From Podospora anserina (taxonomy: Eukaryota), in the NCBI GenBank assembly GCA_017654855.1, contig CM030336.1:4030001-4094000 (forward strand): a stretch of 64,000 bases of DNA, given 5' to 3'. The translations under genes were made by a program, and so were the position numbers. Positions 31,471 through 36,819 of this stretch are shown here, one piece after another (position 1 is the stretch's first letter; each line of letters begins with the position of its first letter). A model generated the notes under the pieces. It was given only the letters and a program-made list of their open reading frames with translations, was not told the DNA's origin and did no database searches.

Positions 31471-32327
31471 ATGGCGCCCCACGCCGGAGGGGACTCCTCC
31501 TCCTCCTCCTCCTCCTCCTCCGACCAATACAAGCCCCAAGATGCTGTCCACGCCGCCCTGACAATGGGTGCCCTCTTCGGCACCGGAGGTCTCTTCCTCG
31601 CCGCCGTCAAGACTTCCCTCGAGAAGAAGCACGTCGGTCCCTGGGCTGTCTTTTCCAAGCACGGCAACATCGCCGCTACTTTTGGTACCCGCCACCCTCA
31701 CCCCGTCATGTCAATCAATTGGTCGCATTCATACTGACATGGATATATAAAAACAGCCGCCGTCGGCTCAGTCTACGAGTTCTCCCGCGTCGCCTCCGCC
31801 AACCTCCGCGAGAAGAACGATCACTACAACAATGCTATCGCTGGTGCTTTTGGTGGTGCTGTCTTGGGGTTGAGAGGTAACCCAACCCCTCCTACTGCTA
31901 GCTAGCTAGACCTTGCATGGAAAGGAAAGGAAGGAAGATGTTGACAAAAACCAAAAACAACAGCCGGTCGCATCCCCGCCATCCTAGGCTACGGCGCCGT
32001 CATGTCCGTCACCTCGGCCGTCTTCGAGTACACCGGCGGCCGCATCCAAGGCGCCGGCCGCAACCCCGACGTGGACGAGTTCGAGCGCAAGGAGATGCTC
32101 CGCAAGAGATACAGAAGGCCGGTGGAGGAGACGATTGCTGAGATTGGGGAGGGGAGATGTGAGTCATATTTTTTCCTGCACCTTTGACAAAGGAAAAATG
32201 CTGACATTGTTTGACGCAAAAAACAGCCATCAAGCTCCCTGGATACGATGAGCGGAGAGCACAGAGGCTCAAGGAGGCCTACGGCTTCGAGGTGAAGCCT
32301 GTATGCGCGGATCCTGACCGTGCTTGA
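31471..32327 (+). CDS. Mitochondrial complex I 21.3 kDa subunit (NDUFA11-like, Tim17 family)
   Basis: Exons 31471-31684, 31757-31876, 31964-32158, 32227-32327. Contains YEFSRVASANLREKNDHYNNAIAGAFGGAVLGLR and RYRRPVEETIAEIGEGR..PGYDERRAQRLKE. Confidence 0.88.
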
Positions 32328-32775
32328 GAAATACGGGTATAGAGGTTTAGAGAGAAAGAGAGACAGACAGAGGTGGCTGGGTTCCCCGGAAAAGGCAAAC
32401 CATTTTTGTACACACATAGCCGAGAATGGGGGGCTAGCCGGTGGCTCACCTCGCCAAAATGAGAGGCGGTGTAAATGGAAAGGGCTTTTGAATTGTGGTT
32501 TTCAGCATCTTCAAAATTGGTGCTCCTTGAGCTTTCTGGTATGATTCTGAGCCAACACTGCAGCTTGAGTTCCCACCCCGTCTTCATCATTGAGAGCGAA
32601 TTAAACTAACAGGCAACAAATGAGAATCTGAGCTTTGCCTGTAGCGTAACTGGGAATGAGCAGTCAAGATGAGAACGGAAGAGCAAGCATCAAAGCGGAA
32701 ATCAAGTCTGATTTTCTAGGTTTTACGAATCTCTATCTCTTACCCCTTAGACCCCCTCAGAACCCAGCCTACCAC

Positions 32776-34760
32776 TCACTCCTTCTGCACCCCCTTCCCC
32801 GACCTCAACAGCTCCACAATGTTAGCCATAGTATGCTTCCTCTTCATCACAAGCCCCTCCTTCCCATCCCCCTCCTCTTCCTCCGTCAGCCCCCTACACT
32901 CCTCCAGCTCGTGATCCCACCTCCCCTTCGTCGCCCGTCTAGCAACATCCAACCAACTCCTCCTCCTCTCCTCCGAAGTCGCAAACGACAACCTCGACCC
33001 CTTGGAATCCCTAGTAGAAGAAACATCCCCCGACCCCGACCCAACCCCATCCTCAGGCCTCCAAATATCAGGCCTAGCATGTGTCTCTTCCCCTTTATCC
33101 TCCCCCTCAACCTCCTCACAATCCTCATGCCCCCTCAATTTCAATCTACTTCCACCCACCCCAGCACCAGACTGTAACCCCCCCTCCACAAAATAATGCT
33201 CTCCCGGTTTATACCTAGGCGTAGACTCCCCGCTCTCATACCGGTCCTCGCTGTGATCCCCACCATCAGGAAACTCAGGAAACGACTCAAGCCTATAAAC
33301 CGGCTCTTCCTCCGTCTCCCTCGCCCCCGGCGAAACCGCAGAGTCAGAAACCGACAGCCTTCTCACCACCTCCTCAAATCTCCGAACCTCCGACAGCTTG
33401 CTCGGTCTAGCCGCTCTCTGCTTTCCACCACCCAACCCCAACCCCGACCCCGACCTGCTGCTGGGCGTCACCGCACCGCTCCCCCCAAAAACAGGTGTAT
33501 TCGCCGGCGGAAACGGGGCAAAACCCCCCTCTTTTCTCTCCGCCGAAAGTGCAGACTTTAACTGTCGCCCCATGATACTACTATCCCCCACCCCACCGCC
33601 AGGACTCACCGGACTAGCTGGTGACCCAACAGCGGTATTTGGTGTATTGGGTGGTACTACCACTACACCGCCGCCACTCCCATTCCCATCCCCCGACCCG
33701 GGAGGAGACATCTGCCCACCATCACTCACCAAACCCACCCCCTCCCTCCCCCTCCTCACCCTCTCCACATCGTCCGCCCTCAAAGAAAGCCTGTCCAGCT
33801 CCCCAGCAGCAATCATCATGCCCGCAACAGCAATCAAATCCAGACTCGGCCTCCTTCCACACCCCCAGCGTTTAAACAGCGGACTCGCCCCCTGCGCCGG
33901 CTCCTCCAGCCGATCCCGATTAGCCCGCCGCCGTTCCCTCCCGTCTGCTGCGTGATGCTGCTCACTTTCCGGCTCTGTAGCAGGAAAGGAGACAGATTTC
34001 GAGCGCCTGATCTTCTGGCGGAACTTTTCAAAGGCGCCCCGCCGAGTTTGGGAGGGGGATGATGGGGAGGAGTTCTACTGGGTTGTTAGCTTGGGGGGGA
34101 GGAGAGGAAGGAGGGGAGAGGGGGGGATGTTACCTATTCCCCTGCTGGTTGGGGGTGGTCGAGCTCTGCTGGGCAGATGATCGTTAAGGCTGATGATTCT
34201 CTAAGAGGGGGGTGTTCATCGATTTGATGGAGGGATGATCCCGGATATTTACTGTTTTGTTCATCAAAAGATTTGAGTCGGGAGTCAGGCAGGGCGCTGG
34301 TGCTTTGGTTGGGGCTTTTTCCTTTGAGGTTAGGTCTTGAACTTGTTGGTAGGTTGGAGGCGCTTTGACGGCGGTGTTTGATGGGGGTGGTGTCTAAAAA
34401 GGGGATTCTGCTTGGTGACCGTTTGGGAGCTTCGTCGGGAGAGGACTGCTCGGGTGGTTCGGCGAGGTGCCCGTCGTAGCCAAATTTGGGTTTGCCTGGG
34501 TATCCTGCTCGCTAGGCTCGGTATTGTGAGGTTGTATCTGACTGGTTGCTGGAGATGAGGTTCTCGGAGGGGGAGTAGCGGAGTTGCATATCGAGGGCGG
34601 AGATCATATTGTTGGCTGGGAGGTGGTTGTAGGCGAGGTCAATGCCAGGGATGGTTGTCCAGCAGCAGCTGAGGAGACGGATGGCGGCGAAGGTGGCTAG
34701 GCTGTCGTTGTTGTTGGTGATGATGTCTTGGAACATATTCGGTTCGGCGGTATTGGACAT
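32776..34760 (-). CDS. Uncharacterised 641-codon gene with two in-frame TAG codons (candidate editing-dependent gene; pseudogene not excluded)
   Basis: Exon 1 34760-34134 (209 codons, TAG at codons 83 and 209), intron 34133-34075 (GTAACA..GCTAAC..TAG), exon 2 34074-32776 (432 codons plus stop), all in one frame that joins the 353-aa ORF in the track. Confidence 0.72.
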
Positions 34761-35415
34761 CGTAAGGTCTGCTGCTATTATGTGTGTCGAATATAAGTGT
34801 AGGTATGTCAGACACCGGGCGGCTGCCCGGTTCTGGAACAGAGTAAGGTATCGCCAGTGGCGGGATTACCTGGCGTTTGTGATCATGATAGCTAACGATA
34901 CTAAAAAGGCATGGTAAAAGGTAGCATGAAATTGGTAATGGTCACTCCGGAGGTCAGTGAAGAGAAGTTGGATGTTTTAAGTTTTTCAAGCCAGGTTCTT
35001 CGAGCAGAACGCTCTTGCTCTGCCAGTTGGAACACGCTGCGATGTCAAGCTCCTTCCTTTGAATTGGTTCATCACATGTCTCCATTTTACATTACTGTTA
35101 CCATTCTCAGATTGAATCAGAGGATGTTACTTGTCAACCTTCAAGGAGACATCTGCTCTCTATTCAGTTGTTTTCTTGCCCCTGATAAACCCCTGTCAGG
35201 GGCAACGGATATCCAGTACATAACCCTAACCCCCATAACTCACCAGCCTCGGCCCAGGTTATCCGTGGATCGGCTAGTGGCGGGGATGAGCACTGGGGAT
35301 CGGGAAGCTATCGGGGCCATGGACAAGGAGGAATGGGAAACACAGCGGGGAATGAAATACAAGGTGAATTCTGCTCCAGCCACCAACGTCAGTATACCGA
35401 CGAACCCAATTGACC

Positions 35416-36819
35416 ATGTCCAGACTCCTCTGCAGACGATTTCCCGCCCGGGCCCTTCTTCAAGCCCGGCCAGCGCTCCCGACCCGGAGCTATGCGTCGG
35501 CATCTCCAGCTGTGCAGTTCGACTGGGAGGACCCGCTCGGAGCAAAGGACCTGTTGACGGAGGAGGAGCTCGCAGTCTCCGAAACGGCTGAGCGGTATTG
35601 CCAGGAGCAATTGCTTCCCCGAGTACTACGTACGAACCGTTGAACCCGAAACCCTCCGAATCCGCCTGCTTGGGCTAACGGCACGATAGAGGCATACCGC
35701 GATGAGCACTACGATCCAAAGATCCTCCGGGAGATGGGCGAGCTGGGTCTCCTGGGAGCCAACCTTCAGGGGTATGGATGTGCTGGAGTGTCGGATGTGG
35801 CTGGAGCATTGATCACTAGGGCCGTCGAGAGGGTGGACAGCGGTTACCGAAGCGGCATGTCGGTTCAGTCGTCGTTGGTCATGGGTGGAATTCATGAGTT
35901 CGGTTCGGAAGAGCAAAAGGAGAGATACCTCCCAGACATGGCAAAGGGCAAGCTTCTTGGTGCTTTTGGACTTACCGAGCCGAACCACGGCAGCGATCCG
36001 GGCTCCATGGAGACGACTGCGCGCGAGCACCCGACCAAGAAGGGGTGCTACCTGCTCAAGGGGTCCAAGACTTGGATCACCAACTCGCCCATCGCCGATG
36101 TTCTCCTCGTCTGGGCCAAGCTCCAGGAGACTGGAAAGATCCGCGGATTTCTTGTTGACAGGAAGGACTGTCCTGCTGGCACACTCGAGACACCCAAGAT
36201 CAGCAACAAGACTGGACTCCGCGCTTCCATCACCGGAATGATTCATCTCGAGGACTGCCCTGTCCCCAAGGAGAACATGTTCCCTGGGGTGGAGGGACTG
36301 AAGGGACCGTTTGCCTGCCTAAACAGCGCCCGATATGGTATCTCTCTCGGTGTGATGGGTGCTTTGGAGGACTGCCTGGCGAGAGCGAGAACCTATGCTC
36401 TGGAAAGGAAGCAGTTCAAGGGCAACCCCCTTGCCAAGTATCAGCTGATCCAGAAGAAGCTCGCAGACGCCGCCACTGATATCTCATACGGCGTCCTGGC
36501 CTCCATCCAGGTCGGCCGGTTGAAGGAGCAAGGCAAGGCTACTCCCGAGATGATTAGCATGGTCAAGCGCCAGAATTGTGACAGAGCTCTGTGGAATGCC
36601 AGAGTTCTCCAGGAGATTTTTGGTGGCAATGCTGTCAGTGACGAGTATGGTATTGGACGCCATGTGGCGAACCTCTATGTGACTCAGACCTATGAAGGCC
36701 AGAGCGATATTCATAGTAAGTTCTACCACCCGAATGCTGACAAAAAGCCATGCCCTGGCTAACTGTGTATAGGTCTCATTCTTGGAAGAGCCATTACTGG
36801 CGTTCAGGCATTTGTCTGA
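35416..36819 (+). CDS. Glutaryl-CoA dehydrogenase, mitochondrial
   Basis: Exons 35416-35629, 35690-36715, 36773-36819. Arg-rich presequence, FDWEDPL, AVERVDSGYRSGMSVQSSLVM, GAFGLTEPNHGSDP, GSKTWITNSP, TYEGQSDIH/SLILGRAITG. Confidence 0.94.

Follow-up and report, generated by a model that had tools for sequence, protein, structure and literature searches.

A Podospora anserina gene with two in-frame UAG codons as a candidate for completion by A-to-I mRNA editing

INTRODUCTION

Can a reading frame that is twice interrupted by TAG encode a single protein? The question is raised by the minus strand of a stretch of the Podospora anserina genome of 64,000 nucleotides (GenBank assembly GCA_017654855.1, contig CM030336.1, positions 4,030,001 to 4,094,000; called here the window). 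An initial annotation had proposed that two open reading frames (ORFs) lying between positions 32,776 and 34,760 are parts of one gene, connected in the same frame across two in-frame TAG codons (TAG1 and TAG2) and a short intron, and that the complete protein is made only when both UAG codons of the mRNA undergo adenosine-to-inosine (A-to-I) editing. We find that this is one gene, which is transcribed and spliced, and that TAG1 and the coding sequence around it are conserved in a distant relative. We estimate a probability of about 0.5 that it is a premature-stop-correction (PSC) gene completed by A-to-I editing at both sites. Our confidence in editing at TAG1 alone is higher, because the conservation of this codon needs some way of decoding it.

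Papers and preprints are cited here from excerpts of their text. A-to-I editing of mRNA occurs in Fusarium graminearum, Fusarium verticillioides, Neurospora crassa and Sordaria macrospora, as well as in Pyronema confluens, and in fungi it is carried out by Tad2/Tad3 (PMC11156358). In the sexual stage it prefers U at −1, A or G at +1 and +3, and a location in a hairpin loop, like A34 of tRNA (PMC11156358). Correction of UAG to UGG is required by 71 Fusarium genes (PMC11156358), 50 of which have disordered regions and 43 of which encode hypothetical proteins (PMC10776026). The TAG codons of such genes have come mostly from TGG but often from other codons, and they have been lost and regained between lineages (PMC10776026).

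RESULTS

Organization of the gene

On re-reading the minus strand we found every mechanical statement of the initial annotation to be correct, with a single frame laid out as 82 codons, TAG, 125 codons, TAG, intron and 432 codons. The parts read from the sequence, in order from 5' leader to TGA, are as follows.

34761..34922, minus strand: 5' leader of the transcript (contig X1 record 2 spans 34307-34922 with 0 differences)
34515..34760, minus strand: segment 1, 82 codons from the start ATG at 34760-34758, with the conserved N-terminal motif LATFAAIRLLSCCWTT
34512..34514, minus strand: TAG1, an in-frame stop within GCC TAG CGA GCA; the candidate edited A is 34513
34137..34511, minus strand: segment 2, 125 codons, open and Met-free on reading the sequence as an ORF
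34134..34136, minus strand: TAG2, the final codon of exon 1; the candidate edited A is 34135
34075..34133, minus strand: intron of 59 nt, with a GTAACA donor, a GCTAAC branch-like site and a CAG-TAG tandem acceptor
32779..34074, minus strand: exon 2, 432 codons, with its first ATG as codon 86, preceded by 85 conserved codons
32776..32778, minus strand: terminal stop TGA

With both TAG codons read as sense the frame comprises 641 codons in total. Apart from TAG1 and TAG2 it contains no stop and no frameshift, and both interruptions are indeed TAG. Segment 1 is homologous by sequence alignment to L002, L003 and P0022, three sequences from relatives that are described below. The interior of the intron is C/T-rich between GTAACA and GCTAAC. 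Very short upstream ORFs are present in or near the leader, beginning at ATG 34912 (3 codons) and ATG 34886 (6 codons), and a further upstream ATG at 34927 falls just beyond the longest contig (region 34884-34927, minus strand).

Transcription and splicing

We compared the window with contigs from four runs (X1, X2, X3 and X7) out of 24 listed, taken one per study, whose RNA nature was guessed. The sequences compared are consensus contigs with tissue and stage not given, and stretches without cover and contig ends (for example the end of X2 record 6, at 34509) are uninformative. Pieces of the gene are present in all four runs, as 13 contig pieces with 0 differences from the window. In X1 the word depth is 239 for the contig spanning 34307-34922 and 137 for the exon 2 contig.

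X7 record 13 spans 34134-34270 and has a further 14 letters as a loose end; reverse-complemented, these are identical to the opening 14 bases of exon 2. This puts the splice junction exactly at TAG/AAC, with the intron directly after the second TAG as had been proposed, and the pieces are those of one transcribed and spliced gene. The splice evidence is this one contig, of depth 2, which is also the sole proof that any of the four runs is RNA. In the tandem acceptor CAG-TAG (34075-34080, minus strand) it is the distal site that is used in the one spliced contig. Use of the proximal CAG would put a second in-frame UAG right behind TAG2, giving UAG UAG as in Fusarium PUK1.

TAG1 in relatives

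Metagenome contigs of the Joint Genome Institute were scanned with a profile of the protein family, giving three loci (L001, L002 and L003). L001 and L002 come from the same, Cladorrhinum-like organism, with 51% identity to protein P0007 of Cladorrhinum sp. and 36% identity to the window in exon 2. They have the segment 1 motif as ARWAAIHLLSSCWTT, then ...EVA, a TAG (489-491 of L002) and, continuing in the same frame, RAEYGG...YGFDGP. The DNA at this point is GCC TAG CGA GCA GGA TAC in the window and GCC TAG AGG GCA GAA TAT in L002. A BLASTP alignment of the two, with TAG read as W in both, spans the stop with 33% identity over 151 columns and E = 7e-14. When a neutral X was placed at the stop, X aligned on X with a score of 128, compared with 22-44 for four other frame pairs. 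The identity is similar on the two sides, with 23 of 59 residues before TAG1 and 26 of 60 after it.

A profile search of short ORFs found two further sequences, P0024, which belongs to the L002 organism, and P0025, which comes from a Logan assembly and represents a third lineage. They differ at 17 of 90 residues (81% identical, by hand count), and P0025 ends with ...AFQAA at the residue of TAG1. The window, L002 and P0025 agree, and there is therefore a stop at the TAG1 codon in three lineages, which is TAG in both of those where the DNA was read. The initial annotation had allowed that the stops might be private to this strain, and for TAG1 this is not so. By sequence comparison TAG1 is probably old, being shared with the Cladorrhinum-like relative.

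In other relatives the parts of the gene are continuous. L003, which is GC-rich and distant, is a single ORF of 472 codons running from the segment-1-like LADFAAMQLLKDCYT to GMMIAAGELDRL without intron or stop. As this ORF is unbroken across all three parts, the ancestral gene encodes one protein. The protein P0022 of Lasiosphaeris hirsuta (648 amino acids) also joins the N-terminal motif to the exon-2 family, so that the proposed union of the N-terminal part and exon 2 in one protein is seen in two relatives. The gene model of P0022 is without some 45 residues right around the place of TAG1, a gap that may resemble one left by a gene caller hiding a stop.

Coding evidence on either side of the stops

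Among four Podospora species, the part of exon 2 that precedes its first methionine has 0 variable columns of 81, compared with 29 of 347 after the methionine (Fisher p = 0.0026). Given this invariance, translation must enter exon 2 from upstream. An alignment of the same part extends to P. australis, L. hispida and L. hirsuta as well, and the P. australis and L. hispida proteins extend colinearly upstream. Residues 128-183, which lie between the two TAG codons, are 44% identical to the N-terminus of P. australis P0006 (pairwise E = 2e-6) and are colinear with the exon-2 match. The conservation between the TAG codons that the proposal called for is thus present at the protein level and in frame, with both P. 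australis and L002.

Segment 1 has C at 55 of its 82 third positions (fraction of third-position C, C3, of 0.67) compared with 46 of 164 first and second positions (Fisher p = 9e-9). Segment 2 has no significant third-position C bias (p = 0.11). In mononucleotide shuffles its 125 codons were open in 380 of 20000 cases (1.9%), and both open and free of ATG in 134. The openness of segment 2 is modest evidence alone, because the segment contains little G or T and exon 1 is also long-open in its two other frames, with runs of 102 and 69 codons. It is the homology that raises the finding above chance.

The third positions of exon 2 have an extreme composition (C 0.09, G 0.53, T 0.28); C3 of the other 19 ORFs of at least 300 amino acids in the window is 0.23-0.56. 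Segment 1 is the opposite of exon 2, its G3 being 0.10, and the GC skew changes sign at about 34070, at the intron. The third-position make-up of exon 2 is not common to the relatives, with C3 of 0.19 and G3 of 0.26 in L001, and C3 of 0.45 in L003. Two antisense open frames lie opposite exon 2, at 33299-33955 (plus strand, 218 codons) and 32650-33177 (plus strand, 175 codons), and the skewed composition of that exon is their simplest explanation. A long-range duplex between the C-rich exon 1 and intron and the G-rich exon 2 was considered and rejected; the inverted repeats are of low complexity, matching at 71-93% over 14-28 nt.

Sequence and structural context of the two UAG codons

TAG1 lies in the sequence U-A-G-C-G and spliced TAG2 in U-A-G-A-A. 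Both therefore have U at −1 and G at +1, as every UAG necessarily does, and both have a purine at +3. The claim that the editing context fits at both sites consequently holds, and TAG2 has in addition a predicted hairpin resembling an anticodon stem-loop, with the following arms.

34138..34142, minus strand: hairpin 5' arm GGGGA (RNAfold minimum free energy (MFE) structure, flanks of 15, 20, 30 and 50 nt)
34064..34068, minus strand: hairpin 3' arm UCCCC, inside exon 2 (RNAfold MFE structure, spliced RNA)

The hairpin can form only after splicing because its 3' arm lies in exon 2; the unspliced RNA around TAG2 folds differently. The fold of the spliced RNA has a stem of 5 bp and a loop of 10 nt, with U-A-G at loop positions 2-4, so that the A is at position 3. 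The probability that this A is unpaired is 0.91-0.93 across the four window sizes. An alternative with a loop of 7 nt is less stable by 3 kcal/mol (−4.8 compared with −7.8). Of the 865 UAG sequences counted over both strands of the window, the A occupies position 3 of a loop of at most 10 nt in 13 (1.5%) when a stem of at least 5 bp is required, and in 28 (3.2%) when one of at least 4 bp suffices.

Outside the P. anserina complex we saw no conservation of TAG2. Since there is no comparative support at this site, TAG2 is young or lineage-specific. In L. hispida the 558-residue ORF P0021, taken from raw DNA, is continuous across the place of TAG2, and there is therefore no intron there in that species. 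Within the complex, the public model P0012 of P. pseudopauciseta is frame-shifted (473 amino acids, labeled 'LOW QUALITY PROTEIN') and is compatible with TAG2 in that species. This is not proof, since AAT and AAC are synonymous in its frame.

Protein family and public gene models

The translation of exon 2 shares 97% identity with a hypothetical protein from Podospora pseudoanserina. Its family has 8 members at E ≤ 0.001 and 9 by profile search, all from Podosporaceae or Lasiosphaeriaceae; none of the 9 proteins from the profile search is from Neurospora, Sordaria or Fusarium, the protein searches being word-seeded and length-limited. The members (P0001-P0008 and P0022) share the motifs MMIAAGELDRL, PPNTP, FPPxNTP, ESFPEF and AHYF, and the C-terminal KRKHT..IVELL. 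The annotation described a protein of unknown family. In agreement with this, no Pfam family was found at E up to 1 for any of the three pieces of the window, nor for P0022, P0008, the ORF of L003 or the N-terminus of L002. For P0022 the Atlas model has a mean predicted local distance difference test (pLDDT) score of 0.37, and the protein is therefore largely disordered. Structure comparison of P0022 in the Atlas gave no family (scores ≤ 0.89, template modeling (TM) scores ≤ 0.26), and there is no Rfam family within 32000-35500. The gene is one locus of the Podospora anserina complex that specifies a largely disordered protein of about 641 residues, belonging to a small family specific to the Sordariales. 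In sister species the stem of its locus tag is 509545.

Public models of the locus disagree. A model of 347 amino acids beginning at MMIAAG is given in P. comata; models of Cercophora samala, two Triangularia species and Apiosordaria also start there. In three sister species the models have 431-436 amino acids and begin with MNKT joined to NSSPSS (P0001, P0010 and P0011), using the following alternative to avoid TAG2.

34251..34264, minus strand: ATG 34264-34262 and GTAAAT donor (GT 34252-34251) of the 'MNKT' models

Together with the frame-shifted model of 473 amino acids mentioned above, each of these models bypasses the stops in a different way. The structure with two UAG codons explains why they disagree.

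Evidence that weighs against editing

A number of observations weigh against completion of the gene by editing. There is no A-to-G difference in the contigs over TAG1 (n = 2, X1 record 2 and X3 record 10) or TAG2 (n = 1, X7 record 13), and as consensus sequences of stage not given these contigs neither show nor exclude editing. A literature search found no genome-wide editing report or catalogue of edited sites for Podospora, only passing mentions; a P. anserina preprint, in the text available to us, refers to editing in passing and to differentially expressed genes for adenosine deaminases acting on tRNA (ADAT). Of the Sordariales, the literature consulted names N. crassa and S. macrospora as having such editing, but not Podospora.

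Some of the comparative data are also unfavorable. In favor of editing, L003 has a true tryptophan opposite TAG1 in a BLASTP alignment with TAG read as W (RTWRG aligned with RA-TAG-RA, E = 6e-4). When X is placed at TAG1, however, MAFFT aligns this stretch of L003 elsewhere, with no tryptophan opposite TAG1, and the tryptophan is therefore only suggestive. Searching with exon 1 (TAG as W) among the called protein representatives gave a single match, the window's own ORF of 82 amino acids, and no longer ORF with W at TAG1 is found among called proteins. The L001 copy appears damaged towards its 3' end. Compared with Cladorrhinum P0007, two TGA codons stand within its positions 1200-1392, one following ...SGADV and the other in ...ETGY-TGA-MSRGW, and the frame also changes there, features that may represent decay, assembly error or further recoding. 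The L001/L002 gene may thus be dying, in which case its TAG would possibly be a lesion. If the TAG of L002 is a lesion, a hit at the very same codon would be a coincidence.

TAG2 fares less well than TAG1 in such comparisons. At its position there is neither a stop nor a W in P. australis, L. hispida or L. hirsuta, where the linker is variable. L002 has an intron with the acceptor in the same position, before AAC, but without TAG at the donor. Within 798-880 of L002 the frame would be broken by use of the consensus donor GTGAGT (802) and is kept only with the poor GTCAAG (813). The GTAACA donor of the window is also non-consensus, yet it is used.

TAG1 for its part is predicted to lie in an internal loop of a weak fold rather than in a hairpin loop. 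A hairpin loop is a statistical preference of fungal A-to-I editing and not a requirement. Lastly, the identity of the two stops carries little weight. Considering all single-base routes to a stop in this frame, 105 of 209 lead to TAG (15 of 33 for transitions only). Two random nonsense hits would therefore both be TAG about 0.2-0.25 of the time, so that this coincidence is weak evidence.

DISCUSSION

Explanations without editing

The alternative that survives best, although we think it unlikely, is a decayed N-terminus. An ancestral coding part would have been lost, leaving the TAG codons as ordinary nonsense lesions and exon 1 as a long 5' leader, and the working protein would be made from MMIAAG in exon 2 (347 amino acids) or by the MNKT alternative splice (436 amino acids). 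The public models of the sister species and of four related genera do start at MMIAAG or MNKT, and such decay would accommodate the lack of TAG2 conservation, the further damage of the L001 copy, the consensus contigs without editing and the fact that two TAG codons are not improbable by chance. However, a relative that is only 36% identical in exon 2 has the identical TAG1 codon, and conservation is in frame before and after it. Over that distance neutral DNA would have ceased to be alignable, and the flanks of TAG1 therefore speak against decay. So do the 81 invariant columns before the methionine, set against the variable columns that follow it, the extreme codon-position bias that segment 1 has kept, and the 641 codons free of frameshift or other stop. 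Moreover the MNKT donor is read straight through in all three of the contigs that cover it.

Two separate translation units seem quite improbable. TAG1 would be the true stop of a protein of 82-130 residues, with the remainder translated by internal initiation, reinitiation or from another transcript. A true stop codon would indeed be expected to recur at one position, as seen here in three lineages, which is a further point against editing, and the extreme codon bias of segment 1 drops past TAG1. L002 has an ATG seven codons beyond its TAG, and ORF callers list the small ORF alone (P0020, P0024 and P0025). Against this, in both species a conserved peptide resumes in the same frame right past the stop (A-stop-R-A). 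Segment 2 contains no ATG in the window, and in L003 and P0022 the two parts belong to a single ORF or model.

Readthrough of UAG during translation, with a near-cognate tRNA decoding one or both stops in place of editing, is very unlikely. A conserved in-frame UAG with coding sequence behind it is also the signature of programmed readthrough, and TAG1 of the window is followed by C, a leaky context after a stop codon; but the base after the stop differs (C in the window, A in L002), neither TAG1 nor TAG2 has a readthrough motif known to us, two such events in succession would give very little product, and the preference of the deaminase is matched by a purine at +3 and, for TAG2, by its place in the loop. 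Repeat-induced point mutation (RIP), which the annotation had named as another source of the TAG codons, has left no signature: usual thresholds are TpA/ApT > 0.89 and (CpA+TpG)/(ApC+GpT) < 1.03, the indices are an ordinary 0.57 and 1.34 in exon 1, 0.71 and 1.16 in exon 2, and 0.59 and 1.27 in the whole window, and we reject a RIP-inactivated pseudogene.

A possible mechanism

In the explanation that we consider best, A34513 and A34135 would be deaminated during fruiting-body development by the ADAT2/ADAT3 tRNA deaminase, as in other Sordariomycetes. The resulting UIG would be read as UGG (Trp), and only then would the full-length protein be made. Unedited mRNA would give only the N-terminal peptide of 82 residues, and it is this unedited form that the contigs show. 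TAG2 would be younger than TAG1, and its hairpin substrate would form only once the intron has been removed.

A more elaborate possibility, which we regard as tentative and rather unlikely, is that the gene is an ancient switch operated by editing, in which one mRNA has two products. A codon-optimized peptide of 82 residues would be made at every transcription of the gene, and a disordered protein of 641 residues only after two deaminations. TAG1 would have been kept since before the Podospora/Cladorrhinum-like split, and the later TAG2, with a hairpin that forms only after splicing, would let splicing license editing. The change of codon usage, from a C3 of 0.67 before TAG1 to 0.09 in exon 2, would then reflect different regimes of translation.

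Comparison with known systems

The closest known systems are the PSC pseudogenes of F. graminearum (PUK1, AMD1 and the 71 genes of PMC10776026). As described there, these likewise have a genomic in-frame UAG in an intact, conserved ORF; at the Podospora locus too, the ORF around the UAG is unbroken apart from the stops and shows conservation on either side. The gene agrees with the published description of such Fusarium genes in each respect that the analysis could address. They have the same U at −1 and purines at +1 and +3, many of their products are disordered or hypothetical proteins, and their TAG codons vary between lineages. PUK1 also has two UAG codons (PMC4817773), which are in tandem, whereas here they are 126 codons apart. 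Here, unlike in the Fusarium genes, one UAG is the last codon of an exon, with a hairpin completed by the next exon. Editing of the Fusarium genes has been demonstrated by RNA-seq and with TAA and TGG alleles; in the present case we infer it, and likewise its stage specificity and what the protein does.

Another gene of the Sordariales, rfk-1 of Neurospora Sk-2, has an early UAG that gives a short product, and a UIG that gives a longer, functionally different product in the sexual phase only (bioRxiv 10.1101/2020.12.30.424869, in the part consulted). It encodes a spore-killer poison of 102 or 130 residues with a single edited stop, in contrast to an extension of about 560 residues, two stops and no link to meiotic drive here. 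A third parallel is the deamination of tRNA A34 by ADAT2/ADAT3 (Tad2/Tad3), for which the U33-A34 anticodon loop and fungal mRNA editing have the same preferences (PMC11156358). TAG2 shares with it loop position 3, the preceding U and the purine three bases on. The anticodon loop has 7 nt, compared with 10 nt in the MFE fold of TAG2, and TAG1 is without such a hairpin.

The kind of gene is known. What is new is the species, the apparent age of TAG1, the exon-final UAG with a splicing-dependent hairpin, and the contrast in codon usage between segment 1 and exon 2. If edited, this would be a PSC gene in P. anserina, a genetic model for which our literature search found no list of edited sites. 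It would also be unusually old for such a gene, because a relative with only about one-third protein identity retains the same UAG. It would then bear on the dispute, as the excerpts of PMC10776026, PMC13431901 and PMC13684035 present it, about whether there is selection for such stops or mere tolerance of them. The junctional UAG at TAG2 would offer a simple test of the order of splicing before editing.

The neighboring gene

The two-UAG gene shares an upstream region of about 500 bp with a divergent neighbor at 35410-36762 (plus strand). By eye this intron-split gene is a candidate mitochondrial acyl-CoA dehydrogenase, of the glutaryl-CoA type. L003 as well has a candidate acyl-CoA-dehydrogenase-like ORF upstream, but on the same strand.

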